Source: a virus
Taxonomy: Duplodnaviria; Heunggongvirae; Uroviricota; Caudoviricetes
Strand: one strand, 5' to 3'
Virus record (IMG/VR): IMGVR_UViG_3300028957_000063
Coordinates: 1 to 8,511 of that record
DNA: 8,511 nt
Numbering within the stretch: the stretch's first letter is position 1; every line of letters begins with the position of its first letter. Shown piece after piece: positions 1-8,511 of the stretch. The notes beneath the pieces are model-generated. The model had not been told where the DNA came from. It saw nothing but the letters and a program-made list of their open reading frames with translations, and searched no databases. Both the position numbers and the translations under genes were made by a program.

Positions 1-1
1 A

Positions 2-1282
2 TTAATTTTTCATTGCTTCGTTATGGGGCATGGTTGGGGCAAACTCGCTTAACTGTGTATTTAACAAAGCTACCTGTGCATTATTGTTTTCAGACATCCA
101 TTTTCCGTATACCTGAAATACCATTTGCGCATCTGCATGGCCCATCTGGTTTGCTATAAATGCCGGGTTAGCACCAGCTGTCAGCGACCAGCAGGCATAA
201 GTATGTCTCGACTGATATGATTTTCGATGGCGGAGTCCGGCACGTTTTATCGCTGCGTCCCACATCTGCCTTATTGAGTCAACGGTAAAATGGTCACCAT
301 AATTTTTTACTCTCGCTGACACTTCAGGTTGAAAAACAAAGGTGCATTTATGTTTTTCTGTTCTGCCATACTCTCTGAGGTGAACATCAATGATATGCTC
401 TTTGCTCAGTCTCGTTAATGTCATCTGACTCCGGAGAGCGTCGATTGCTGGCTTAATAAGATGAATGACCCGATTGGTTCCCGCCTGTGTTTTTGGTACC
501 GTGAAACGGTCTTTTGCTAAATTTCTCCTGATCATCATTGTTCCATTTTTCAGATCTATGTCCTCCCATCCAAGTGCACACAGCTCACCAGGGCGAACGC
601 CAGTATAAACAGAAATACACCATAAATTTTTGGCTTGCTGATTTCTGCACGCATCGATAAGACGGATGAATTCCTCCCGCGAAAGAGGATCCGGAATGGT
701 TCTTGATTCCTTTAATGGCGAGATCCCCTTAAACGGGTTATCTGCCAGGTAACCGTTATCAACACCAAACTGGAACACGGCGTTAAGATTTGTCATGTAA
801 TTATTTACAGTTACAGCCGATCTCCCTGGTTGTGTAACAATATAGTTACTTTTGGGGATCTGGTATCCAGTCAGTAGCTCTTTACGAACCTCCAGTAATT
901 TTTCTTTATTAATCGATGAGGCAAGATTTTTTTCACCGATTATGCTCAGGATATTTTTGATGACGGCACGGTATGTGTTGAGTGATGTTTTGGCGACTTC
1001 ATTTTCTTTCAGTGCCAGAAATTTTTCAGCCAGTTCTTTTATGGTTAAATCTTGTCGGGCCTCACCAAATTTTTCCAGATTGCGTGATGAGGGAAACTGT
1101 TTTGCATAGTCGAAAACACCAGTTTTTATTGCGTAACAAACAGAGGAGCGTAGTTCACCTGCAACGCGCCTGTTTTTTGCTGTGTCAGGAACCCCCAGAT
1201 TTTCCCTGACTCTTACGCCTTTATAAACAAACCAGATACGTAATTTCCCTCCATGGTTTTCCACGCCTGTCGGATATTTCAT
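2..1282 (-). CDS. int: Tyrosine-type site-specific integrase (lambdoid, IntR/IntE-like with N-terminal arm-binding domain). The ORF is open to 1297, but the second ATG at 1282 (MKYPTG...) is the likelier start.
   Basis: Long ORF with stop at 2-4. N-terminus MKYPTGVENHGGKLRIWF resembles arm-binding integrases such as Rac IntR (from memory). C-terminal region HRKSYQSRHTYACW...GHAD fits the tyrosine-recombinase R..H-x-x-R..Y pattern. GAGAAG Shine-Dalgarno-like sequence precedes the second ATG, none precedes the first. Sits next to an excisionase-like ORF. Confidence 0.9.
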   Translation of the reverse strand: MKYPTGVENHGGKLRIWFVYKGVRVRENLGVPDTAKNRRVAGELRSSVCYAIKTGVFDYAKQFPSSRNLEKFGEARQDLTIKELAEKFLALKENEVAKTSLNTYRAVIKNILSIIGEKNLASSINKEKLLEVRKELLTGYQIPKSNYIVTQPGRSAVTVNNYMTNLNAVFQFGVDNGYLADNPFKGISPLKESRTIPDPLSREEFIRLIDACRNQQAKNLWCISVYTGVRPGELCALGWEDIDLKNGTMMIRRNLAKDRFTVPKTQAGTNRVIHLIKPAIDALRSQMTLTRLSKEHIIDVHLREYGRTEKHKCTFVFQPEVSARVKNYGDHFTVDSIRQMWDAAIKRAGLRHRKSYQSRHTYACWSLTAGANPAFIANQMGHADAQMVFQVYGKWMSENNNAQVALLNTQLSEFAPTMPHNEAMKN

Positions 1283-1316
1283 TTCAACTTCTCTCATTAG
1301 TTAGTGTGGCTTTTAG

Positions 1317-1568
1317 TCAAGTAAGATGACGTCTTGGTCTCGCTGATGCCTGGCGCTCAATCCAGCGATCAATTTCTTCCAGGTTGTAAAAGCATGGACT
1401 GTTATCCCATGGCATACCGTCATGAGCGACATGCTTATATTCCCTTCCTTCCATAAACGATTTTTCCCGGGCCTTTTTTAACGTACCTTTTTTTATTCCT
1501 TTCAGCGCAATTAACTGCTCTTCGGATACCCATTTGCCGGGAGAGACAATCATGATTACTTCGCTCAT
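1317..1568 (-). CDS. xis: Excisionase-like small DNA-binding protein (83 aa), possibly the DUF1233-type putative excisionase family
   Basis: Small basic ORF immediately upstream of int on the same strand, 19 bp from the int start region. The family call rests on int-xis gene order and size; the sequence was not aligned to any known Xis. Alternative start at 1553 (MIVSPGKW). Confidence 0.6.
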   Translation of the reverse strand: MSEVIMIVSPGKWVSEEQLIALKGIKKGTLKKAREKSFMEGREYKHVAHDGMPWDNSPCFYNLEEIDRWIERQASARPRRHLT

Positions 1569-1597
1569 CGATTTCTTTATCTCTTACATCAGACGAG

Positions 1598-1629
1598 CGC
1601 CGGTTGCAGAATACCAGTCACAACCGGCG
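1598..1629 (-). other. Stem-loop between the exonuclease-like gene and xis
   Basis: 9-bp perfect stem CGCCGGTTG / CAACCGGCG with a 14-nt loop. No U-tract follows on the minus strand, so it is not a classic terminator. Confidence 0.4.
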
Positions 1630-1640
1630 ACAGTTGAACA

Positions 1641-4016
1641 TTAAGAATCAGCCTGACTCGGGATCAGTTTTTGCCAGATAACTGAAACGTATTTTGCCTG
1701 GTAACGGGCGTCATCAAGTGCATTATGGCGCTCACCTTCGAATGGAATAGCCGTTCTGGCATCGAAGTCTATGGCTTTCCCCAGCTCAACGATTGTGCGT
1801 ACATCGCGATCGTTGTAGTAACGCCACGGGCAGGGGATCCCCTGCCGTTCGTATGAACGGCGCAAAATCGTGTTGTCGAAGTTGGCTCCATTTCCCCAGA
1901 CCTGAACAAAAAATTCACCGGAGTTTTCGTCGATAAATTCCCGCAATTGTAACAGTGCATCATCTAACGGGATTTCATCGGTCATAATGGCAGATTGCGC
2001 TTCGCGTGATTGCTTAAGCCACCATTTAATGGTGTCCCGATCAATGACTCCGCCAGCAGTTTCCAGATCGATAGTCTTACTAAATTCCGGTCCCATATCT
2101 CCGGTTTGCGGATCGAAAAATATTGCACCTATTGAGATGATCGGGGCATCAGGATTTTTTCCCATGGTTTCAAGGTCGATCATTAGATGGTCACACGTCC
2201 TGCTGGTGGATGTGATTTCGTGATGACCGTTCACCGCAATTAAGGGATCTGCCGTCTCGCCAGTTTCATTATCGCTATTGTGATGCTGATTGCCGCCAGT
2301 GTTCTCCTTGTGTGGATGTTCAGCGCCTTCCATTTCCTCCGGATCATTTTCCTGAACTTCAACCTGATTCTCTTCATTGAATGTTTCCTGGTATGTTGCG
2401 TCGCCCATCACCGCGCCACAATCAGGGCAGTTGCCGCCACCGCTCTGACCGCAGGCGGTGCAGACTTTTTCCGTTTCTTGTTGGTTCTGGTTCACTGAAT
2501 CGCGGATTTCAATCCCCTTCACCCATTTCGGATCATTCGGGTCGCTAATTCCTGCAACAAATTCACCGCGAGAGGCCGCAAGCAACTTATCGGCGTCAGG
2601 CTGGCTGATATTGGCTGCCTGCATAATTTTGTTTACTTCGTCAGCGGTAACTTTTACCGGCTCTGGTTGTGCGGTCGTGTCAGATGCACCAGTATTTTGT
2701 TGTGAACCTGAGTACGTGCCGTTTTTACGTGCGAAGTATTCCTCTTTTGTGATTTCCGTAGCTCCCAAGGCCAGTGCTTTTTCCAGACCAGAAAGTTTGT
2801 TTGCGCGACCGTATTTTTCGCCGTCCTTATCGGTGAAAAGGAAATAGAACGGCCCCTCTCGTTCTACAGATGATTCGGCTTCCACTTCGCATTCGGTTTT
2901 TTCGTTGTTCGGCATTGCCGTTTCCACTGCATCAGCTTCTGGTACTGGCGACGGGAGAGTATCAGTTGCGCTCTGATTTGTTCCTTCATCTTCAAACACG
3001 CCCTTTGTAGTCAGGTATTCAGTGATGTATTTGTTCAGCGCCACAGGATCTTTGTGAATGTCGATCGGACGTTCACGAACGAGGCCGAAAATAGTCTGGC
3101 AGCTGTAGTGAAGCGCATCAGGCTGTTTGCGCATTGATGCGGAGATGCGCTTCCAGTCTTCGCGATCCTTGTCGATAACTTCATTTTTTGCCCAGCGATG
3201 GATGCTGCCGTCAATGTTTCCTGCATCAATATCACCAGGCCAGAGAGCGCAGGCCAGTTCTTCATCCAGTGTTTTCCATGTCTGCTTGTATTCGCGACGA
3301 ATGGCGGCAGTGGCGGGGTTGATTTTTCCTGCTGAGTTTTCAGTGTGCTGCCGGTTGACTCTGGCGCGGGCAAGATCAACAACAGACGTGTATTTCCCGG
3401 TTTCTTTGCGTTCGGCTTCGCGACGTTTTTTCCAGGTGCGTAATTCTGTCTGGATCTCAGGCCATTTTGCACCCGGCTTACATTTATGTTTAACCCACCC
3501 GATGGCGAGCAGTTTTAGTTCTGAATACATGACGTTAACTTCAGGCATTTTCATCAATGCCTCAACGATATGCCCGTCGAATGTTGCCATGTCCTCCTGC
3601 AACAATTCCTGTGCACTAATCACCATATCAACGGTGATGTTTTCACATGTACCGAACTTAACCAGGACCGCGTTCTGTACTTCAAGGGACAGCTTGTCAA
3701 AATTGACGTTCATCGGATCGGATTCTGGTTCGACCGGAACAAAGGAAGCGCCTTCCTCATCCCAGCGGTTTTCCAGCATATATTCGGTATCCCAGGAGTC
3801 GATGGCAGGGCGGGGCATGCCGGGTTTATCCTCGCAGACAAGAAATTTATAAGCGCAGTCCTGAGCAGCCGGATATTGCTCCAGGAATTGCCAGGTAAAT
3901 TTGGCACGGGCGCGGCGTTCGTCGCCGGCTTCAATGGCAGTGGCTACAGCGACTGCACCTTCTTCCTTTATTGCCTGTTCGTCCGGAATGGCGGCGCAAA
4001 TAAAGACTTTACTCAT
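1641..4016 (-). CDS. Large prophage protein (791 aa) with a C-terminal DnaQ-like DEDDh 3'-5' exonuclease domain, a CxxC-x10-CxxC zinc-ribbon motif and an acidic linker. Proteins of this kind are often annotated exodeoxyribonuclease VIII-like.
   Basis: Uninterrupted 2376-nt ORF. Exonuclease motifs read in the translation: MIDLETMG (D-x-E, encoded from 2183 downward), WGNGANFD and HNALDDA (H-x4-D). Cys cluster VCTACGQSGGGNCPDCG is encoded at about 2400-2462. Occupies the position of the recombination module (exo/bet or recE) in lambdoid prophages. Confidence 0.8.
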   Translation of the reverse strand: MSKVFICAAIPDEQAIKEEGAVAVATAIEAGDERRARAKFTWQFLEQYPAAQDCAYKFLVCEDKPGMPRPAIDSWDTEYMLENRWDEEGASFVPVEPESDPMNVNFDKLSLEVQNAVLVKFGTCENITVDMVISAQELLQEDMATFDGHIVEALMKMPEVNVMYSELKLLAIGWVKHKCKPGAKWPEIQTELRTWKKRREAERKETGKYTSVVDLARARVNRQHTENSAGKINPATAAIRREYKQTWKTLDEELACALWPGDIDAGNIDGSIHRWAKNEVIDKDREDWKRISASMRKQPDALHYSCQTIFGLVRERPIDIHKDPVALNKYITEYLTTKGVFEDEGTNQSATDTLPSPVPEADAVETAMPNNEKTECEVEAESSVEREGPFYFLFTDKDGEKYGRANKLSGLEKALALGATEITKEEYFARKNGTYSGSQQNTGASDTTAQPEPVKVTADEVNKIMQAANISQPDADKLLAASRGEFVAGISDPNDPKWVKGIEIRDSVNQNQQETEKVCTACGQSGGGNCPDCGAVMGDATYQETFNEENQVEVQENDPEEMEGAEHPHKENTGGNQHHNSDNETGETADPLIAVNGHHEITSTSRTCDHLMIDLETMGKNPDAPIISIGAIFFDPQTGDMGPEFSKTIDLETAGGVIDRDTIKWWLKQSREAQSAIMTDEIPLDDALLQLREFIDENSGEFFVQVWGNGANFDNTILRRSYERQGIPCPWRYYNDRDVRTIVELGKAIDFDARTAIPFEGERHNALDDARYQAKYVSVIWQKLIPSQADS

Positions 4017-4096
4017 TTTGTTTTAACCTCATTACAGATTTAAGGGTGAACAAATCCCTGCCATTGCTGGCATATAAAAATGAAACCGGATATTAA

Positions 4097-4300
4097 TTAC
4101 GGTGCTGTTTTAAGTCCTGCCGGGATTTCGTTATTGTCCATGCGAATAACTTTATCAACCGGATAACAGTTGCCGGGAATTTTCTGTTCCGCTGCGGCAG
4201 CCATGCATTCTTTCATTGAGTCATGTATACCAATAACAAGATCGACTGGTTCGCCTGTATTAAGAAAAACTGTCAGAACGAGTGCAAATGCTGTATTCAT
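4097..4300 (-). CDS. Hypothetical small protein (67 aa from MNTAFALVLTVFLNTG...) with a hydrophobic N-terminus, possibly signal-peptide or membrane associated
   Basis: ATG at 4298-4300 is preceded by AAAGGA. The upstream ORF's stop lies 2 nt before this ATG, suggesting translational coupling. Function unknown. Confidence 0.5.
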   Translation of the reverse strand: MNTAFALVLTVFLNTGEPVDLVIGIHDSMKECMAAAAEQKIPGNCYPVDKVIRMDNNEIPAGLKTAP

Positions 4301-4302
4301 TG

Positions 4303-4485
4303 TCAGCGTCCTTTTTGCATCAGGCGTAAACGGGCCAGCATTGAAACAATGCATATTTGATTTAATAGCTCCCGTTCGTGTTTTCTCTTATTAATGGCAT
4401 CTTCAGTAAATACAGGGTTACTGATTCTGACACCAATTTCAAAACAACCTTCAGACGTATTGACGTTTGGTAATAACGTTTCCAT
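4303..4485 (-). CDS. Hypothetical small protein (60 aa)
   Basis: ATG at 4483-4485 with a GAGGA Shine-Dalgarno sequence about 7 nt upstream. Co-oriented with and tightly coupled to the next small ORF. No family recognised. Confidence 0.5.
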   Translation of the reverse strand: METLLPNVNTSEGCFEIGVRISNPVFTEDAINKRKHERELLNQICIVSMLARLRLMQKGR

Positions 4486-4502
4486 TATCGCGTCCTCAAC
4501 AA

Positions 4503-4662
4503 TGAATTTTGTGATGCGGTGCCTGGTGCCTCCAGGTGACGTTAACCAGTTAACAATTAACGCCGGATACAGGGAAACCCATAAACACCCGATACGGGGG
4601 AACTAATCGCTTTTTAACTGTTCCGCGTGCGCTGAGCCGCATTCACCGCATCACAAAATTCA
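4503..4662. repeat. Perfect 19-bp inverted repeat pair flanking a 122-bp core
   Basis: TGAATTTTGTGATGCGGTG at 4503-4521 is the exact reverse complement of 4644-4662. The core contains hairpin CCTGG-TGCCT-CCAGG (4522-4536) and three closely spaced TTAAC/GTTAAC copies (4550-4570). Confidence 0.7.
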
Positions 4663-4665
4663 CTT

Positions 4666-4712
4666 TAAAAAGGGCGGGTATCACAAGGGAAAACAAAAAA
4701 CGGATACCCGCC
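4666..4712 (-). terminator. Candidate intrinsic terminator for leftward transcription (tL-like)
   Basis: 10-bp GC-rich stem (4673-4682 pairs with 4703-4712) with a 20-nt loop, followed on the minus strand by C then TTTTT (complement of 4667-4671). The loop is long and the U-tract short, so this is tentative. Confidence 0.35.
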
Positions 4713-5052
4713 AAAAGGTAATCAACATGGGTTGTTGTAGCGGGGTTGTCACTCAGGCGTATGGTCAACCTGACAACCCGGTGCCACCAATGGGGGTAAG
4801 GAATAACCCCGCCATACTTACCGCCGCGCCATTTCGCGGATTGCCACAACCGGAAGCGCACGGTCGACGAAAATTTAACGACAGGCTATCTATGAACCAG
4901 CTACCTCGCCGTGCGCTTTCGCGTTATGCCCTGACTTTTCAGGGATATATCCTTTCAGTAAACTGTCAGTGCCGGATGTTCACCCGTGTCCGGCGCACGC
5001 ACTCCACTTCACCCGTGGAGAACTCCTTAATTACCAACCCTCAGGAGGGTGA

Positions 5053-5286
5053 ATGTTAAAATCAACTCTTATTGCTAAATGCCTTTATCAAAATCGCATG
5101 GTAAGCAGCATTTCAATAGGCGAGTCTGCAGTTAAAAGTATTTTCGAAGAGTACTTTCCCGGGCATGATTTTAATAAATGGAATACCAAATTACCGCCAG
5201 CAGTTTCAACGCGTATTCTGAAAGCAACTGAAAGAGCAAGTACAATTCGCGTTAACTATTTCATTAAAGATTTGTGGGATCTTTGA
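5053..5286 (+). CDS. Hypothetical small protein (77 aa), encoded opposite to the surrounding leftward operon
   Basis: Strong Shine-Dalgarno AGGAGG 4-5 nt upstream of ATG 5053. AT-rich codon usage unlike the flanking DNA (by eye). Its 3' end overlaps the convergent 135-aa ORF by 23 nt. No family recognised. Confidence 0.45.
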   Translation: MLKSTLIAKCLYQNRMVSSISIGESAVKSIFEEYFPGHDFNKWNTKLPPAVSTRILKATERASTIRVNYFIKDLWDL

Positions 5287-5671
5287 TATCCACAGAGCCT
5301 AAAGTATGTGCATATGGATGTGCTATTGTGCGCCCTCGCAGATTTGCATCATTTTCTAAATTCACTGAACGAAACAGGGCATCAACAAGGCTCTGTACAA
5401 TGCAAAGGCAATCGAAGACTGTCGCCGTTTCTGTTTTGATTGATGAAAGAACATGGCCATTCACGCAAACAGAAATTACCCGTTTATTAACATCGCTTTC
5501 CTGCTTTTGATTATCAGAACCATATAGCCCAGAAAAAGCATTGCGCACATTACAAACCATATTATCGATGGTTTCTTTTTTGGTGTATGCCGGGTCAATT
5601 TTCACCAGACTATCACCGAGAGTCGTTGCAGCAATTGTCTGGATTTCTTTTGGTAAATCTTTAAATTCCAT
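5264..5671 (-). CDS. Hypothetical protein (135 aa), in an AT-rich accessory segment
   Basis: ATG at 5669-5671 with GAGG about 8 nt upstream. Starts 22 nt after the stop of the upstream 72-aa ORF. No family recognised. Confidence 0.55.
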   Translation of the reverse strand: MEFKDLPKEIQTIAATTLGDSLVKIDPAYTKKETIDNMVCNVRNAFSGLYGSDNQKQESDVNKRVISVCVNGHVLSSIKTETATVFDCLCIVQSLVDALFRSVNLENDANLRGRTIAHPYAHTLGSVDIKDPTNL

Positions 5672-5693
5672 TATTAGCCTCGTTGGTTAGCTA

Positions 5694-5912
5694 TTAACGT
5701 GGGTATGTAATCATTCTTGCAATGCTTAATGCCGCTGCTTTTTCCAGCCTGGTGATATCCTGCTCCAGAGCGGACAGATTTTCAGCCTGCTTAGCCCTGG
5801 CTTCATTGGCCCATTTCAGATCCTGCGCTGCATTAATTTTCTGGCGCATCCACTCATAAAGTTCATCATCGGTATAGTCTGGCGCGATGATGACGGGTTC
5901 TCGTTTCTGCAT
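5694..5912 (-). CDS. Hypothetical small protein (72 aa)
   Basis: ATG at 5910-5912 preceded by GAGGAA. An in-frame TAA lies just upstream at the gap edge, so it is an independent ORF and not a continuation of the gene broken by the N-run. Confidence 0.55.
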   Translation of the reverse strand: MQKREPVIIAPDYTDDELYEWMRQKINAAQDLKWANEARAKQAENLSALEQDITRLEKAAALSIARMITYPR

Positions 5913-5952
5913 ACTGATTCCTCGCGGTGCTGCTTCGCTTATCAGGCGTTAG

Positions 5953-5987
5953 NNNNNNNNNNNNNNNNNNNNNNNNNNNNNNNNNNN
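5953..5987. other. Run of 35 ambiguous bases (N): assembly gap or masked segment of unknown true length
   Basis: Directly visible in the sequence. Confidence 0.99.
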
Positions 5988-6054
5988 CTTCGCCTTCGGC
6001 AAGGCCTTCGAAGTATTCTTCGTAAGCCTTTTCCATGATTGTGTCGAAATCCAT
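5988..6054 (-). CDS. 5' fragment of a small prophage gene (MDFDTIMEKAYEEYFEGLAEGE...) truncated by the N-run. Possibly a YdaF/DUF1391-like protein, but this is very uncertain.
   Basis: ATG at 6052-6054 with AGGTGA upstream. The preceding gene's TGA ends 1 nt before this ATG. The reading frame runs into the 5953-5987 N-run, so the 3' end is unknown. Confidence 0.35.
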
Positions 6055-6055
6055 A

Positions 6056-6211
6056 TCACTCACCTGAGTTTCTTTCCAGCCAGCGACGGGCACCATTTTC
6101 GGTTTTAAACGTTTTGCTTTTGGTATACGTCATCGCGGTGAATGTGCCGTCCTGGTTGGGAAACACGCCGTACACCAGAGATTCGTTGTTGCCAAGATCG
6201 ATAGTATCCAT
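6056..6211 (-). CDS. Small prophage protein (51 aa, MDTIDLGNNESLVYGVFPNQDGTF...), possibly YdaG-like
   Basis: ATG at 6209-6211 with GAGGT 5 nt upstream. It is the first gene downstream of the putative leftward promoter region. The longer ORF-track start at 6265 has no Shine-Dalgarno sequence. The family guess is from memory only. Confidence 0.5.
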   Translation of the reverse strand: MDTIDLGNNESLVYGVFPNQDGTFTAMTYTKSKTFKTENGARRWLERNSGE

Positions 6212-6265
6212 GTTGACCTCATTTCCCCTTAACGCCGGGGTAGCGGAACTGTTTGCTGAGAACAC

Positions 6266-6414
6266 CGTGCGGTGTCTTGATGAATAAAATTTAGAATAAC
6301 CTAAGGTGGATGGTCAAGGTTTTTGTGTAGAAAAACCTAAGTTTTTTTGATGTAAAAAACACAAGTGTTTGAAAGTTTGTGCTTTTTATTACAGGGTGTG
6401 GAGAAAAAAGGGGG
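6266..6414 (-). promoter_or_regulatory. AT-rich intergenic region downstream of the repressor gene: putative leftward early promoter (pL analogue) with operator-like sites
   Basis: On the minus strand, TTGACC (complement of 6313-6318) is followed about 18 nt later by TAAATT. Operator-like imperfect palindromes at 6289-6306 (ATTTAGAATAACCTAAGG) and 6325-6342 (GTGTAGAAAAACCTAAGT) share the TAG-N6-CTAAG core with the pR-side sites. Confidence 0.4.
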
Positions 6415-6822
6415 TTATTTGTTTGCGCTTCTTTTGCGAGCTTTGAGTAGTTCTTCAAAAAGTTTGTTGAAATTTTCAACTCGAGCACGCATCTCTGACA
6501 ACAGGGCCTTTTGCTCTGACTCAGGCAGTGCGTCGAACAGTTGAAGTAACTCTTTTTGATCTTCTGTCAGAATGGCTGGTTGATTATCCGGGAGCGGTTC
6601 GCCTGGTTGTTTATCTTCATCCCCAAAAAGAAGCCAAGTCGGTGAGCACTGAAGCGCTTGGCTCAGTGCGAATAATCTTTTCCCCGCCGGCTGTGTTTCA
6701 TCTCTTTCCCATTGAGAAATTGTTACGTGAGCCACTTTGACCAGCTTACCTAATGCGGCCTGAGACAGTTTTAATTTTTTACGCCTATGTAAGAGGCGAG
6801 CACCGAAGGTTTCGTTTTTCAT
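6415..6822 (-). CDS. dicA: Prophage repressor, HTH XRE-family, DicA-like (cI analogue), 135 aa
   Basis: N-terminal HTH (LSQAALGKLVKVAHVTISQWER). Strong resemblance from memory to E. coli DicA (blocks such as LFALS..LQCSPTWxLFGDEDKQP and EMRARVxNFNKLFEELLKAR). Divergently arranged with a Cro/DicC-like gene. Confidence 0.85.
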   Translation of the reverse strand: MKNETFGARLLHRRKKLKLSQAALGKLVKVAHVTISQWERDETQPAGKRLFALSQALQCSPTWLLFGDEDKQPGEPLPDNQPAILTEDQKELLQLFDALPESEQKALLSEMRARVENFNKLFEELLKARKRSANK

Positions 6823-6898
6823 ATTAGGGAATTCTAATTTTTCTTGACTTAGGTTTCTCTACGATCTAGTTTCCTTAGGAAAATCTAAGGAGTTCGAT
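6823..6898. promoter_or_regulatory. Divergent promoter/operator region between the repressor and the cro-like gene (oR/pR/pRM analogue)
   Basis: Rightward -35 TTGACT (6844-6849), 17-bp spacer, -10 TAGTTT (6867-6872), then AAGGAG Shine-Dalgarno sequence 6 nt before ATG 6899. Palindrome CCTTAG-GAAAAT-CTAAGG at 6873-6890 and a weaker copy at 6847-6864 overlap the promoter elements. Confidence 0.55.
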
Positions 6899-7126
6899 AT
6901 GTTGAAAATTGATGCTATAGCGTTTTTTGGCAGCAAAACAAAGCTTGCCAATGCCGCAGGAGTTAGGCTGGCAAGCATTGCTGCATGGGGGGAACTGGTT
7001 CCTGAAGGTCGCGCGATGCGCCTGCAAGAGGCATCCGGCGGGGAACTTCAGTACGACCCTAAAGTTTATGACGAATATCGTAAGGCAAAGCGGGCGGGGC
7101 GGTTGAACAATGAAAATCACCCCTGA
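6899..7126 (+). CDS. dicC: Cro-like regulator, DicC/YdaS-like (75 aa)
   Basis: Small ORF divergent from the DicA-like repressor with a strong AAGGAG Shine-Dalgarno sequence. Translation resembles DicC from memory (FGSKTKLA..AG.RLAS...LVPEGRAMRLQEASGGELQYDP...). Confidence 0.8.
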   Translation: MLKIDAIAFFGSKTKLANAAGVRLASIAAWGELVPEGRAMRLQEASGGELQYDPKVYDEYRKAKRAGRLNNENHP

Positions 7127-7661
7127 ACAGGTTTGTGAGGCTCTGGATGCCTGGGTATGCCGACCAGGAATGACACAGGAGCAGGCGACGATATTAATCA
7201 CGGAAGCATTCTGGGCTCTGAAAGAACGCCCGAACATTGATGTTCAACGCGTCACGTTTGATGATGGCGCGGTTGATCAACGGGCACTGGGCGTTAACCG
7301 GGTGAAGATATTCGAACGCTGGAAAGCTATCGACACCAGGGATAAGCGTGAAAAATTCACGGCGCTGATTCCGGCAATTATGGAGGCTATCCGGATCAGC
7401 GATTTCAGGTTGTATTGTGAAATTACTGACGGAAAAAGCATTACGTACATGATCGCCGGGTTAAACAAAGAATATGGCGATGTGGTGGAGTCCGGGCTGC
7501 TTTTTGCGGATCCAGCTGTTGTGGAGCGTGAGACTGACGAGCTTATAGAAAAAGCTATTGCTTTCAAGCATGCGTATCGTCAGCAATACCAACATTACTT
7601 TGCAGATAAACAAATATCTGTCTGGGGTTCGTATGAGTATCGATGCACTACGATGGGCTAA
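7110..7661 (+). CDS. Prophage early regulatory protein at the cII position (183 aa), possibly CII(CP76)-like or YdaT-like
   Basis: ORF starts inside the last codons of the cro-like gene (17-nt overlap, different frame) and ends at TAA 7659-7661. Family assignment is from position and size only. Confidence 0.6.
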   Translation: MKITPEQVCEALDAWVCRPGMTQEQATILITEAFWALKERPNIDVQRVTFDDGAVDQRALGVNRVKIFERWKAIDTRDKREKFTALIPAIMEAIRISDFRLYCEITDGKSITYMIAGLNKEYGDVVESGLLFADPAVVERETDELIEKAIAFKHAYRQQYQHYFADKQISVWGSYEYRCTTMG

Positions 7662-8511
7662 AAAGGTGAAAACCGGCAGTTCATCCAGCAAGTCAGTATT
7701 GACCTGGCTTGCTGATATGTGCGGTGCCGATTTGTGTGCATACCCGTCTGTATCTGCACTGGCAGAAGTAACGGAACTGAACAAAAAGACTGTGCAGGAC
7801 AGCTTACGACACCTGATGGAGATTGGGTTAATTGTTGATACCGGTGAGAGAAAAGGCAGAACAAAGCAAATTGTGGTGTACCGACTTATCGGTGTAGAAG
7901 AAAGTGTTGCCGAGCCTGAATACACCCAAAAACGGGAGTCTTTAAAGGTGGGTAAAATTGGTGCTGTTAATAAAAACAGTACCGAAAATGGTTATGTTTC
8001 AGCACAAAACAGCCCCAAAAACGGAACTCTTAGCTGCATGGAAAATAACCAAAGACACCCAAATTTTCCATCAAAGACACCCAAAAACGGATCACGGAAC
8101 CCAAAGGAACCCAAAGATCTAACCCCCACACATAACGCACGCGAGAGTGCTCCGACCAGTGAGCAGGAAGTTTTGTCGTTACAGGCAGCACCCCCTGTAT
8201 TCCTGGGTGGCCTGAGCGAACCCATCGGAAAATTTCCGATGACCGATAGCTGGTATCCGTCACGGGATTTTCGACGACGGGCTGCGTTGTGGGGGATGGC
8301 TTTGCCGGAGACAGAATTTACACCTGCTGAACTTGCCGCCTTCCGGGACTACTGGGCAGCGGAGGGGAAAGTATTTACGCAGATTCAGTGGGAGCAGAAA
8401 TTCGCCCGTCACGTAAATCACGTCAGGGCGCAGGTTAAACCAGTCAGCAAGGGGGTGAACCATGCAGCAGCACCAGGTGGCACCGCATCACGGGCAGTTC
8501 AGGAAATTCGG
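7633..8511 (+). CDS. Phage replication initiation protein (O-like: N-terminal winged-helix/HTH, C-terminal DnaT-like region), 3' end beyond the window
   Basis: Open frame from ATG 7633 to the window end with no stop (hand-translated: MSIDALRWAKKVKTGSSSSKSVLTWLADMCGADL...). Not in the ORF track, presumably because it has no stop in the window. Overlaps the upstream gene by 29 nt. The C-terminal part (FRDYWAAEGKVFTQIQWEQKFARH) looks like DnaT-type replication proteins. Iteron-like repeats lie in the linker. Confidence 0.75.
   Translation, partial: MSIDALRWAKKVKTGSSSSKSVLTWLADMCGADLCAYPSVSALAEVTELNKKTVQDSLRHLMEIGLIVDTGERKGRTKQIVVYRLIGVEESVAEPEYTQKRESLKVGKIGAVNKNSTENGYVSAQNSPKNGTLSCMENNQRHPNFPSKTPKNGSRNPKEPKDLTPTHNARESAPTSEQEVLSLQAAPPVFLGGLSEPIGKFPMTDSWYPSRDFRRRAALWGMALPETEFTPAELAAFRDYWAAEGKVFTQIQWEQKFARHVNHVRAQVKPVSKGVNHAAAPGGTASRAVQEIR
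7922..8115. repeat. Iteron-like direct repeats inside the replication gene: putative phage origin of replication
   Basis: Core CCCAAAAACGG occurs three times (7925-7935, 8014-8024, 8080-8090). There is a further ACACCCAAA copy at 8055-8063 and a tandem GGAACCCAAA x2 at 8096-8115. The block lies in the linker of the O-like gene, as the ori does in lambda O. Confidence 0.5.

Follow-up and report, generated by a model that had tools for sequence, protein, structure and literature searches.

The DNA analysed here is a stretch of 8,511 nucleotides (nt) from a virus of the Caudoviricetes (IMG/VR record IMGVR_UViG_3300028957_000063, positions 1 to 8,511), referred to below as the window. Gene order and protein family matches identify it as an early-left operon of the dicBF type, from a lambdoid prophage resembling Qin and with a minus-strand transcript. 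A first, sequence-only reading had pointed to a segment at 4712-5052 as GC-rich, dense in hairpins and free of any convincing open reading frame (ORF). We show here that this segment is a non-coding RNA of the minus strand. Within it, 4734-4850 form a conserved domain of 117 nt with four helices and a four-way junction, a fold that is well supported by comparison with relatives, and the next element on the transcript is a small RNA (sRNA) that takes the position of DicF. The structure was derived by hand from an alignment of the window with Escherichia coli K-12, phage P1 and a Stx2c phage, and it consists of the following parts.

4734-4850, minus strand: conserved RNA domain of 117 nt
4843-4850 with 4734-4741, minus strand: H0, the closing helix
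4835-4839 with 4824-4828, minus strand: H1 (CCGCG/CGCGG)
4820-4822 with 4780-4782, minus strand: H2a
4807-4810 with 4792-4795, minus strand: H3, a variable hairpin with a pyrimidine-rich loop
4771-4779 with 4743-4751, minus strand: H4 (GGGTTGTCA/TGACAACCC)
4812-4817, minus strand: 5' strand (GUAUGG) of a probable pseudoknot
4759-4764, minus strand: 3' strand (CCAUAC) of the probable pseudoknot, in the 19-nt loop of H4

In the alignment of these four sequences blocks of identity alternate with stems that change in a compensating manner. In the wider set of relatives described below, GGGUUGUCA/UGACAACCC is replaced by GGGUAACCA/UGGUUACCC in Izhakiella and by GAGUUGCCA/UGGCAACUC in P1. The H3 stem takes about ten different sequences (CGGGG, CUGGG, CAGGG, CAGGUG, CCCGGG, CCGG and others), the complement always follows and the hairpin is kept in all of them, with a loop that is pyrimidine-rich in every stem variant (for instance UUAUUCCUU, UUUCCUCCAUUG and UCUUCCUU). 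The strongest sequence conservation of the domain lies in its loops and junctions.

Relatives were gathered by pattern scans, and at least 120 contigs came from the viral scan and 17 from a scan in which each species was represented by one genome. Among them are E. albertii, E. ruysiae, Shigella, Citrobacter, Trabulsiella, Erwinia tracheiphila, Izhakiella and Serratia symbiotica. A match in Bacteroidetes failed the covariance model and was discarded as chance. When 67 distinct sequences were aligned with MAFFT, 97.1% of the cells of the structure could pair, compared with 34-58% when the partners were slid by one to three columns, and seven pairs changed on both sides. None of the shuffles of this alignment matched the observed percentage paired, the counts of pairs and cells that change on both sides, or the covariation score. 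A covariance model (R1) built from 31 representatives finds one copy per true locus at 90-154 bits; the window scores 147.7 bits and P1 89.8 bits. In the alignment fitted to the model, which is biased towards the structure, 96.2% of the cells of 35 distinct sequences pair, and 13 pairs change on both sides compared with 3.7±1.3 in shuffles and 1-5 in slid controls; over both alignments the slid controls reach 33-58% paired. Folding of single sequences by minimum energy recovers H0, H1 and H4 in nine of 13 lineage representatives. RNAalifold on the MAFFT alignment gave a poorer result (26 pairs, one of them covarying), because the pseudoknot cannot be placed and the variable hairpin is misaligned, and it was replaced by the hand-derived structure and the pair counts.

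The pseudoknot GUAUGG/CCAUAC is probable. All six positions are paired in 35 of 35 sequences, and the variable position reads U:A in 32, U:G in two and C:G in one. Part of this invariance stems from how the sequences were collected, since the search patterns fixed five of the six positions. Two viral scans for pseudoknot variants returned mostly chance matches and only three members of the family, one with a G:U pair and two with single mismatches, none of them compensated, so that the pseudoknot is graded no higher than probable.

Wobble pairs give the direction in which the fold is read. Cells with G:U outnumber those with A:C by 61 to 17 (3.6 times), which argues for an RNA read on the minus strand. 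The structured non-coding RNA proposed in the sequence-only reading is thus borne out as a conserved fold, but not on the strand assumed there, since the transcript is that of the minus-strand operon. All four inverted repeats listed in that reading are found: GGGTTGTCA/TGACAACCC at 4743-4751/4771-4779, CCGCG/CGCGG at 4824-4828/4835-4839, GCCGGA/TCCGGC at 4971-4976/4989-4994 and the palindrome GGATATATCC at 4943-4952. Two of them are the helices H4 and H1, whose pairing is kept through compensatory changes in other phages and genera, and we regard this comparative support as the strongest sign that the repeats exceed chance. A repeat finder added a 13-nt pair with 92% complementarity (4851-4863/4909-4921) and, just to the left of the segment, a perfect 10-nt pair (4673-4682/4703-4712). 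The GC-richness is mild (G+C about 0.50, against 0.39-0.44 alongside). Folding beats dinucleotide shuffles on both strands, with z = -2.15 for the minus and z = -3.61 for the plus strand.

The pyrimidine-rich H3 loop (4792-4810 and homologues) resembles the anti-Shine-Dalgarno end of 16S ribosomal RNA. In many relatives GAGGA or AGGA follows on the 3' side of the H3 hairpin; the window has neither.

Two reading frames cross the segment or its edge.

4727-5059, plus strand: ORF of 110 amino acids (aa), spurious
4643-4861, minus strand: ORF of 72 aa, not conserved

The 110-aa ORF had been doubted as a gene from its composition, and rightly so. It is present and intact in the window only; the other 41 distinct homologues (41 of 41) are broken by three to six in-frame stops each, and mostly the start codon is absent, which in the window falls in the variable sRNA module. 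The homologues of 4727-5059 measure 329-333 nt and hence differ by frameshifts. Variable columns are spread evenly over codon positions 1, 2 and 3 (31, 34 and 30), that is, without codon periodicity. Pfam gives no match. The matches to PHROG families are weak and span only 18-21 residues, and the likeliest explanation is that ORFs were over-called on this conserved DNA in phage records. ORF retention, third-position bias and a family match, the marks of a coding sequence, are therefore all lacking. The alignment of homologues shows compensatory base changes and no conservation of a codon pattern, and with neither a protein family match nor a codon pattern in the substitutions the idea of a degraded gene remnant has no support either. 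The 72-aa ORF on the minus strand crosses the hairpin of variable length (the region measures 127-133 nt) and runs into the swapped sRNA modules.

The operon around the domain is that of the left arm of a lambdoid prophage, with its genes on the minus strand.

5694-5912, minus strand: ydfC, followed by the ydfA/ydfB region and the repressor region
5264-5671, minus strand: 135-aa gene, phrog_1363
5053-5286, plus strand: 77-aa gene, full-length match to phrog_10348 (E=1e-47), inside the gap between minus-strand genes
4303-4485, minus strand: dicB, cell-division inhibitor and next gene of the operon (Pfam DicB, E=1.5e-37)
4097-4354, minus strand: DUF1482 gene (Pfam, 1.2e-22)
1641-4016, minus strand: 791-aa exonuclease
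1317-1568, minus strand: small gene at the position of the excisionase
2-1297, minus strand: integrase

We took a dicBF-type operon to comprise, on one strand, a repressor, ydfA/B/C, an untranslated spacer with an sRNA, dicB, genes of the DUF1482/ydfD type, an exonuclease, xis and int, and gene order and Pfam matches show this arrangement in the window. The order of DicB, DUF1482, exonuclease, integrase, ydfC and ydfA/B is the same in the annotated E. coli and Stx-phage records NZ_AP045053 and LC567818 and likewise in K-12, and the nearest E. coli and phage records carry the dicB label. About 780 nt upstream of dicB are without a minus-strand gene. Here, the minus strand at 4734-5039 is 93.8% identical to the K-12 spacer between ydfC and dicF (BLAST query 75-380, and also by pairwise alignment), so that about 4734-5040 correspond to the leader before DicF by homology as well as by strand. 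Conservation to K-12 is as high in the 150 nt that separate the DicF position from dicB as it is in the spacer. Only the DicF position has been swapped for other sequence, between two flanks that are both about 94% identical to K-12. In the window the spacer stands between the 135-aa gene, which lies downstream of ydfC, and the sRNA. K-12 has neither the 77-aa nor the 135-aa gene, and both therefore represent an insertion between ydfC and the spacer. These two genes are convergent, their 3' ends overlap by 23 nt, and the 77-aa gene is oriented against the operon; a promoter-like site for the 77-aa gene was not found. In the translations of ORFs in the ydfA/ydfB region X runs occur at about 5930-5990, which points to a stretch of N in the window, where bases are masked or unknown.

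What follows the domain on the transcript is a separate, exchangeable unit.

4667-4733, minus strand: sRNA module, a diverged DicF allele with an AU-rich linker and an intrinsic terminator

The terminator (4712-4667) reads GGCGGGUAUC, a U-rich loop of 20 nt, GAUACCCGCC and then CUUUUU, with the stem formed by 4703-4712 and 4673-4682 and the U-run at 4667-4671. The Rfam model of DicF (RF00039) finds nothing in the window at E<=1, where the gathering score is 48 and K-12 reaches 76.7 bits. The window allele has kept the 5' arm of the DicF terminator and the start of its loop (GGCGG(G)UAUC.GUUUU), and the residual similarity is confined to this part; the 5' seed of DicF is missing and the loop is different. 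For these two reasons the sRNA of the window probably has targets other than ftsZ. This allele occurs in 205 of 5,426 complete E. coli genomes and is annotated in none of them. In a crude test of duplexes between the loop and the ftsZ ribosome-binding site (RBS) against shuffles, DicF gave z = -1.8, the allele of the IMG/VR contig L033 likewise z = -1.8, and the window allele z = +0.7, so that on this crude measure the loop complementarity of DicF to the ftsZ RBS is not seen in the window. Duplex energies over the whole length of the sRNAs were uninformative because long artificial duplexes formed, and the test was redone with the loops only. The L033 loop AGUUUCUCUCC shows perfect complementarity over 11 nt to the E. 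coli ftsZ RBS (GGAGAGAAACU), a closer fit than that of DicF itself. The alleles may thus differ in whether they keep or lose the cell-division target. A module of the L033 type is also present in two Citrobacter loci (L135 and L136).

Over 133 loci the approximately 170 nt after the domain fall into 13 sequence types. DicF is the commonest of these (88 of 133 loci), and the type of the window accounts for seven. A script found a GC hairpin with a U-run 33-125 nt after the domain in 12 of the 13 type representatives; in the thirteenth, from Serratia, it found none, but by eye we read this type, too, as ending in a hairpin and a U-run. In the loci from Erwinia (L141, 4680-4750), Izhakiella (L142), Trabulsiella (L138) and Serratia (L130), and in L048, the terminator hairpin after the domain encloses GGAG(G)AG and an AUG (…GAAGAUAAUGUUCUACCG…). 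A Shine-Dalgarno-like site and an AUG enclosed in this way imply a reading frame that starts in the terminator stem-loop and runs downstream. The H3 loop and the inner strand of this hairpin are both UCUUC-like, complementary to GAAGA.

The domain is widespread and is not tied to one kind of prophage. Its region matches 4,428 of 5,426 complete E. coli genomes, in a median of two places per genome. In Stx2c phages, phage cdtI and a Salmonella phage the BLAST match covers query 71-191, which is 4730-4850 of the window, and in distant phages the matches end at the domain borders or a few bases from them. P1, P7 and about 500 P1-like plasmids match over query 82-180 with 75-80% identity. In P1 the domain starts about 30 nt after P1ban, a promoter controlled by C1, and is followed by a hairpin (GCCCAUCUUCGGGUGGGC) with a U-run, two transfer RNA (tRNA) genes, tciABC, a third tRNA gene and ban. 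The label 'dicF-like region' in the P1 record (NC_005856; 2442-2543 against 2484-2609) corresponds to the 3' half of the domain and the next hairpin. This region holds no DicF homologue, and its hairpin is unlike DicF.

In an Erwinia tracheiphila prophage CII and Cro are encoded in one direction, and the repressor, of the CI-type S24 kind, is encoded in the opposite one. Beyond the repressor there is a hairpin that resembles a terminator, then a TTGACA-18-TACATT site. A gene-free stretch of about 700 nt follows, in which the basal stem described below, the domain (4532-4659 of that locus) and a terminator are found; the early genes are next. We take this to be the place of nutL in lambda and of putL in HK022. 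In loci of the Erwinia type (L141 at 4400-4530, L142 and L048) the insert of the basal stem carries two hairpins resembling T-arms, for example GGCAGGTTCAATTCCTGCC and GGTCCGTTCAATTCGGACC. T-arm-like GGTTCAATTCC motifs lie upstream in such loci, and ARAGORN calls no tRNA there; these hairpins may be tRNA remnants or tRNA-like elements.

On both sides the domain is flanked by stems that coincide with known ends of DicF transcripts.

4851-4921, minus strand: basal stem-loop directly 5' of the domain, with arms at 4909-4921 (CGAAAGCGCACGG) and 4851-4863 (CCGUGCGCUUCCG)
4506-4659, minus strand: dicB leader between the sRNA and dicB, resembling STnc100, with a perfect 16-bp helix (4644-4659 with 4506-4521)

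The basal stem is part of the minimum-energy fold of the minus strand. An equivalent stem with other sequence and another insert is predicted in Erwinia (GAUGAGAGCAUUG/CAGUGCUCUCUUC) and in Trabulsiella (GGUAAGAGCAUUCC/GGAAUGCUCUUUCC). In K-12 a DicF species of 190 nt depends on RNase III, whereas RNase E is required for DicF of 53 nt (PMC10448788). If 190 nt are counted back from the annotated 3' end of K-12 DicF, the alignment leads to about 4856 in the window, a position within the 3' arm of the basal stem and 6 nt short of H0. This stem is the presumed RNase III site that would make the 5' end of a pre-sRNA of about 190 nt. K-12 DicF begins 16 nt beyond H0, where the sequence is AU-rich (CAAU↓UUUC, the arrow marking the 5' end). 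With one end before H0 and the other after it, the domain is exactly the piece between two cuts, which we infer to be an RNase III cut in the basal stem and an RNase E cut in the linker after H0. RNase E prefers to cleave at RN↓WUU, and on this basis a cut is predicted in the window at 4722/4721 (GA↓UU), which would give an sRNA of 55 nt ending at 4667.

The 16-bp helix of the dicB leader ends about 20 nt before the start codon of dicB. The match to STnc100 (4508-4660; 34.3 bits, E=1.3e-4) stays below the gathering score of 47. A 72-nt form of DicF has a 3' end that is made by RNase III (PMC5069750), and this end maps to about 4648, in the 5' arm of the 16-bp helix, which makes the helix a probable second RNase III site. 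For the 3' arm of the basal stem we also considered pairing with a downstream copy of AGCGCACG; the complementarity of 6-9 nt in two lineages is too weak for such a pairing.

What does the domain do? We favour, with a probability of roughly 0.5, a cis-acting module for maturation and stability of the pre-sRNA. According to this proposal the polycistronic transcript would start at a DicA-type repressed promoter, and RNase III would cut the basal stem (4851-4863 with 4909-4921) to leave a precursor of about 190 nt, with its 5' end about 6 nt ahead of the domain. Once folded, the domain would shield the new 5' end and present the single-stranded AU-rich linker just after H0 to RNase E, thereby fixing the place of the cut. 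RNase E would free an Hfq-type sRNA of about 55 nt (approximately 4721-4667) that ends at the intrinsic terminator, and transcripts that read through would go on into dicB and the recombination genes. Several points weigh against this proposal. The cut sites for the window allele are extrapolated from gel sizes in K-12. The nucleotides of junctions and loops are nearly invariant from E. coli to Erwinia and P1, which seems more than guidance of RNase E or protection of a 5' end would need. In P1 the domain lies about 30 nt after P1ban and no comparable stem is seen upstream, so that trimming by RNase III cannot be essential to its role. The leader position in P1 and Erwinia, immediately before an intrinsic terminator that transcription of the early genes has to cross, fits transcriptional control at least as well. 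The collection patterns fix part of the core, and the independent lineages behind the covariation are few, about six to eight.

The main alternative is that the domain controls transcription in cis, either like a riboswitch or like a put RNA that binds RNA polymerase or a factor, and sets the read-through of the terminator. Part of the output would then end as the sRNA at the terminator, and part would reach the early genes farther on (in the window dicB, exonuclease, xis and int; in P1 tRNAs, tciABC and ban). We regard this as a serious competitor, although less probable than the maturation module. In its favour a GC hairpin with a U-run follows within 33-125 nt whatever the sequence of the module (133 loci; 12 of 13 types by script). 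In P1 the domain comes just after P1ban, and the strong hairpin GCCCAUCUUCGGGUGGGC with its U-run stands before the tRNAs and ban; in the Erwinia prophage a PL-like promoter follows cI, and the leader of about 700 nt separates it from the first early genes. No N-type antiterminator appears among the operon annotations, though no specific search for one was made. The pattern of conservation, with invariant junctions and pseudoknot, covarying stems and a variable distal hairpin, is aptamer-like, and the variable 3' part resembles expression platforms. However, a conserved alternative pairing that would disrupt the terminator was not found in 13 lineage representatives, and in 11 of 13, those in which it could be placed cleanly, the minimum-energy fold retains the terminator hairpin whether the 5' half of the domain is present or removed. 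The distance between domain and terminator varies, there is no candidate ligand or factor, and in Qin-type prophages ydfABC stand between the promoter and the domain, which is thus far removed from it. A put RNA is built differently (about 70 nt, two stem-loops; PMC9378689), and processing alone explains the K-12 data. The wider claim, that the domain represents an undescribed class of cis-regulatory phage RNA that senses a signal or binds RNA polymerase or a factor and gates read-through in P1 and in lambdoid phages that look as if they lack N, is one we regard as doubtful. Should it be true, induction would involve a choice between a host-directed sRNA (DicF in its many alleles) and the early genes, and DicF would be the trans-acting 'expression platform' of the element.

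Since conservation is strongest in loops and junctions, and the domain is conserved whichever sRNA comes next, one may also think of a stable RNA that acts in trans once it has been cut from the sRNA, as a decoy for protein or RNA or as an antisense RNA through the H3 loop. The pyrimidine-rich, anti-Shine-Dalgarno-like loop in every stem variant and the ends of the distant-phage BLAST matches at or near the domain borders would fit. A stable species of about 135 nt is reported nowhere in the searchable literature, however, and the unvarying association of the domain with a terminator module speaks for action in cis; we think a function in trans unlikely. The mosaic surroundings could suggest that the DNA itself is conserved, as a linker for mosaic recombination or as a protein-binding or recombination site (the latter had been offered in the sequence-only reading), with incidental hairpins. 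Alternative sequences do adjoin on both sides, with at least three left junctions and 13 right modules as at mosaic boundaries, and the plus strand folds at least as well in silico. A DNA site does not explain compensatory double changes that keep helices in diverged sequences, nor the 3.6-fold excess of G:U-compatible over A:C changes, as it would show no strand bias, and mosaicism can follow from conservation rather than cause it. We hold this to be quite improbable. A role of the plus strand, be it as leader or promoter region of the 77-aa gene or as the 110-aa protein, has the least to recommend it and is very improbable. The segment does lie directly upstream of the 77-aa ORF, a member of the real phage family phrog_10348, the folding z-score is lower on the plus strand, and the 110-aa ORF is intact in the window. 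Yet the segment is kept without the 77-aa gene in K-12 and most relatives, and the left junction of the window, beside that gene, occurs in only 12 of 35 aligned distinct spacer sequences, so that the proposal of a leader specific to the 77-aa ORF has to be given up. No sigma-70-like site was found on the plus strand within 4712-5052, the wobble bias favours the minus strand, and the 110-aa ORF fails by its 41 broken homologues, its lack of codon periodicity and the missing Pfam match.

Among known systems, the region between ydfC and dicF of the K-12 prophage Qin and its 190-nt DicF precursor (Faubladier et al. 1990, as cited; Ragunathan et al. 2023, PMC10448788) are the direct homologue, in the same operon order. 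They share the leader between dicF and dicB with dicB next, the stems at the RNase III-dependent ends of the 190-nt and 72-nt species and the AU-rich linker at the RNase E end. The window differs in that DicF is swapped for a diverged allele and the 135-aa and 77-aa genes are inserted. The 'dicF-like region' in the ban leader of P1 and P7 shares the domain (R1 89.8 bits, BLAST 76%; compensatory changes in H0, H3, H4 and the pseudoknot), the sense of transcription, a repressor-controlled promoter and a terminator hairpin that comes next. It differs in its distance of about 30 nt from the promoter, in that no comparable stem is seen, in a hairpin unrelated to DicF and in the downstream tRNAs, tciABC and ban.

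In the 3'-UTR (untranslated region) sRNA MicL stem-loops direct precise processing by RNase E, according to the account of Updegrove et al. given in PMC9438474, and this serves as a precedent for the maturation reading. As far as that account goes, MicL-type sRNAs share with the window the excision by RNase E beside structured RNA and an intrinsic terminator end that serves Hfq. In the window the upstream structure is instead a 117-nt junction with a probable pseudoknot and near-invariant loops, kept across genera and unrelated sRNA modules, and the RNase III step comes first. The put RNAs of HK022 (putL and putR) are about 70 nt long with two stem-loops in a V shape, and they are processive antiterminators made of RNA only (PMC9378689). 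They, too, are cis-acting structured RNAs upstream of terminators in early operons of lambdoid phages that apparently lack N, and in P1 and the Erwinia-type prophage the domain shares their position just after the early promoter. It has a different build, however: the domain has 117 nt, four helices and a probable pseudoknot, and no sequence relation is known; by the description in PMC9378689 neither its size nor its number of stem-loops is that of a put RNA. R1 finds nothing in HK022 24000-30000, a stretch that may lack the put sites. A nut-like reading was suggested by a UGCUCUUU-like sequence 5' of H0 in some lineages and by CCCUGAAAAGUCAGGG. We rejected it, because a conserved stem takes up the boxA-like stretch and the hairpin loop is not that of lambda boxB.

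Prophage RNAs with a conserved and a variable part are known from the anti-sRNAs AgvB and AsxR and the Pas/STnc100 families of pathogenic E. coli (PMC4104026; bioRxiv 10.64898/2026.05.13.724894). Like the present element these are present in multiple copies and are spread by phage mosaicism. Their genes belong to the late region, close to Q and to those for lysis, their length is 51-90 nt and it is their 5' part that varies, whereas the locus of the window is early-left, its 5' part is conserved and the 3' sRNA is variable; only the dicB leader is STnc100-like.

Scans with Rfam 15 (cmscan, E<=1) return only the STnc100 match in the window and nothing over the domain or the rest of the segment. 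At gathering scores ten related loci likewise give nothing over the domain; outside it they show DicF (K-12), tRNAs (P1), IsrK, C4 and STnc150. ARAGORN finds no tRNA in the window or in nine related loci, and Rfam has no tRNA match over the domain. We therefore discarded a tRNA or tRNA-like element, which only the topology of the four-way junction recalls. The core sequence is printed in no paper of the searchable literature, the conserved fold goes unmentioned there, and PMC5069750 treats the region between ydfC and dicF as 'a long untranslated region'. The operon homologue and the maturation of DicF by two nucleases are already known. As far as the tools and the searchable literature show, what is new is a discrete and widespread fold of 117 nt before DicF, its presence in P1 and several other enterobacterial genera, and its use as a constant 5' unit for many sRNA-terminator modules, including the unannotated allele of the window.

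DicF is among the oldest known bacterial sRNAs, and the approximately 340 nt before it have been treated as an anonymous untranslated stretch. A third of this stretch is a discrete fold that is present in about four of five complete E. coli genomes, usually in at least two copies. It acts as an unchanging 'socket' on the 5' side, into which at least 13 sRNA-terminator modules fit interchangeably. The fold gives a handle for finding unannotated sRNAs at the DicF position, such as the window allele, and offers a testable account of how RNase III and RNase E mature DicF. It is also a candidate for passing internal terminators in early operons that seem to have no N-type antiterminator. If the domain is only a processing scaffold, it provides a useful family definition; if it controls termination, it would be a new class of regulatory RNA in well-studied phages.

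The remainder of the segment, upstream of the basal stem, is less widely kept.

4922-5040, minus strand: upstream spacer, in Qin-type prophages only, with hairpins GCCGGA/UCCGGC (4971-4994), CUCCAC/GUGGAG (about 5003-5021) and CCCUG/CAGGG (4925-4940)

Over 35 distinct sequences its mean column identity is 91%, with the variation mostly in loops, and there is one clear compensatory change (CCCUG..CAGGG to CUCUG..CAGAG). The case for structure in the spacer appears modest and is weaker than that for the domain. Its left boundary near 5040 adjoins at least three different neighbour sequences. A 10-nt motif, CACGGGUGAA, occurs twice on the minus strand (4979-4988 and about 5008-5017), 29 nt apart in the apical parts of adjacent hairpins. 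Substitutions in relatives fall mostly just after the motif, and the repeat might be a repeated binding site. In two loci with the domain, the Stx2c phage L005 (4893-5081) and the Citrobacter locus L136 (1630-1815), IsrK and C4 antisense RNA stand side by side about 2.3 kb away on the opposite strand, with matches that exceed the Rfam gathering scores.

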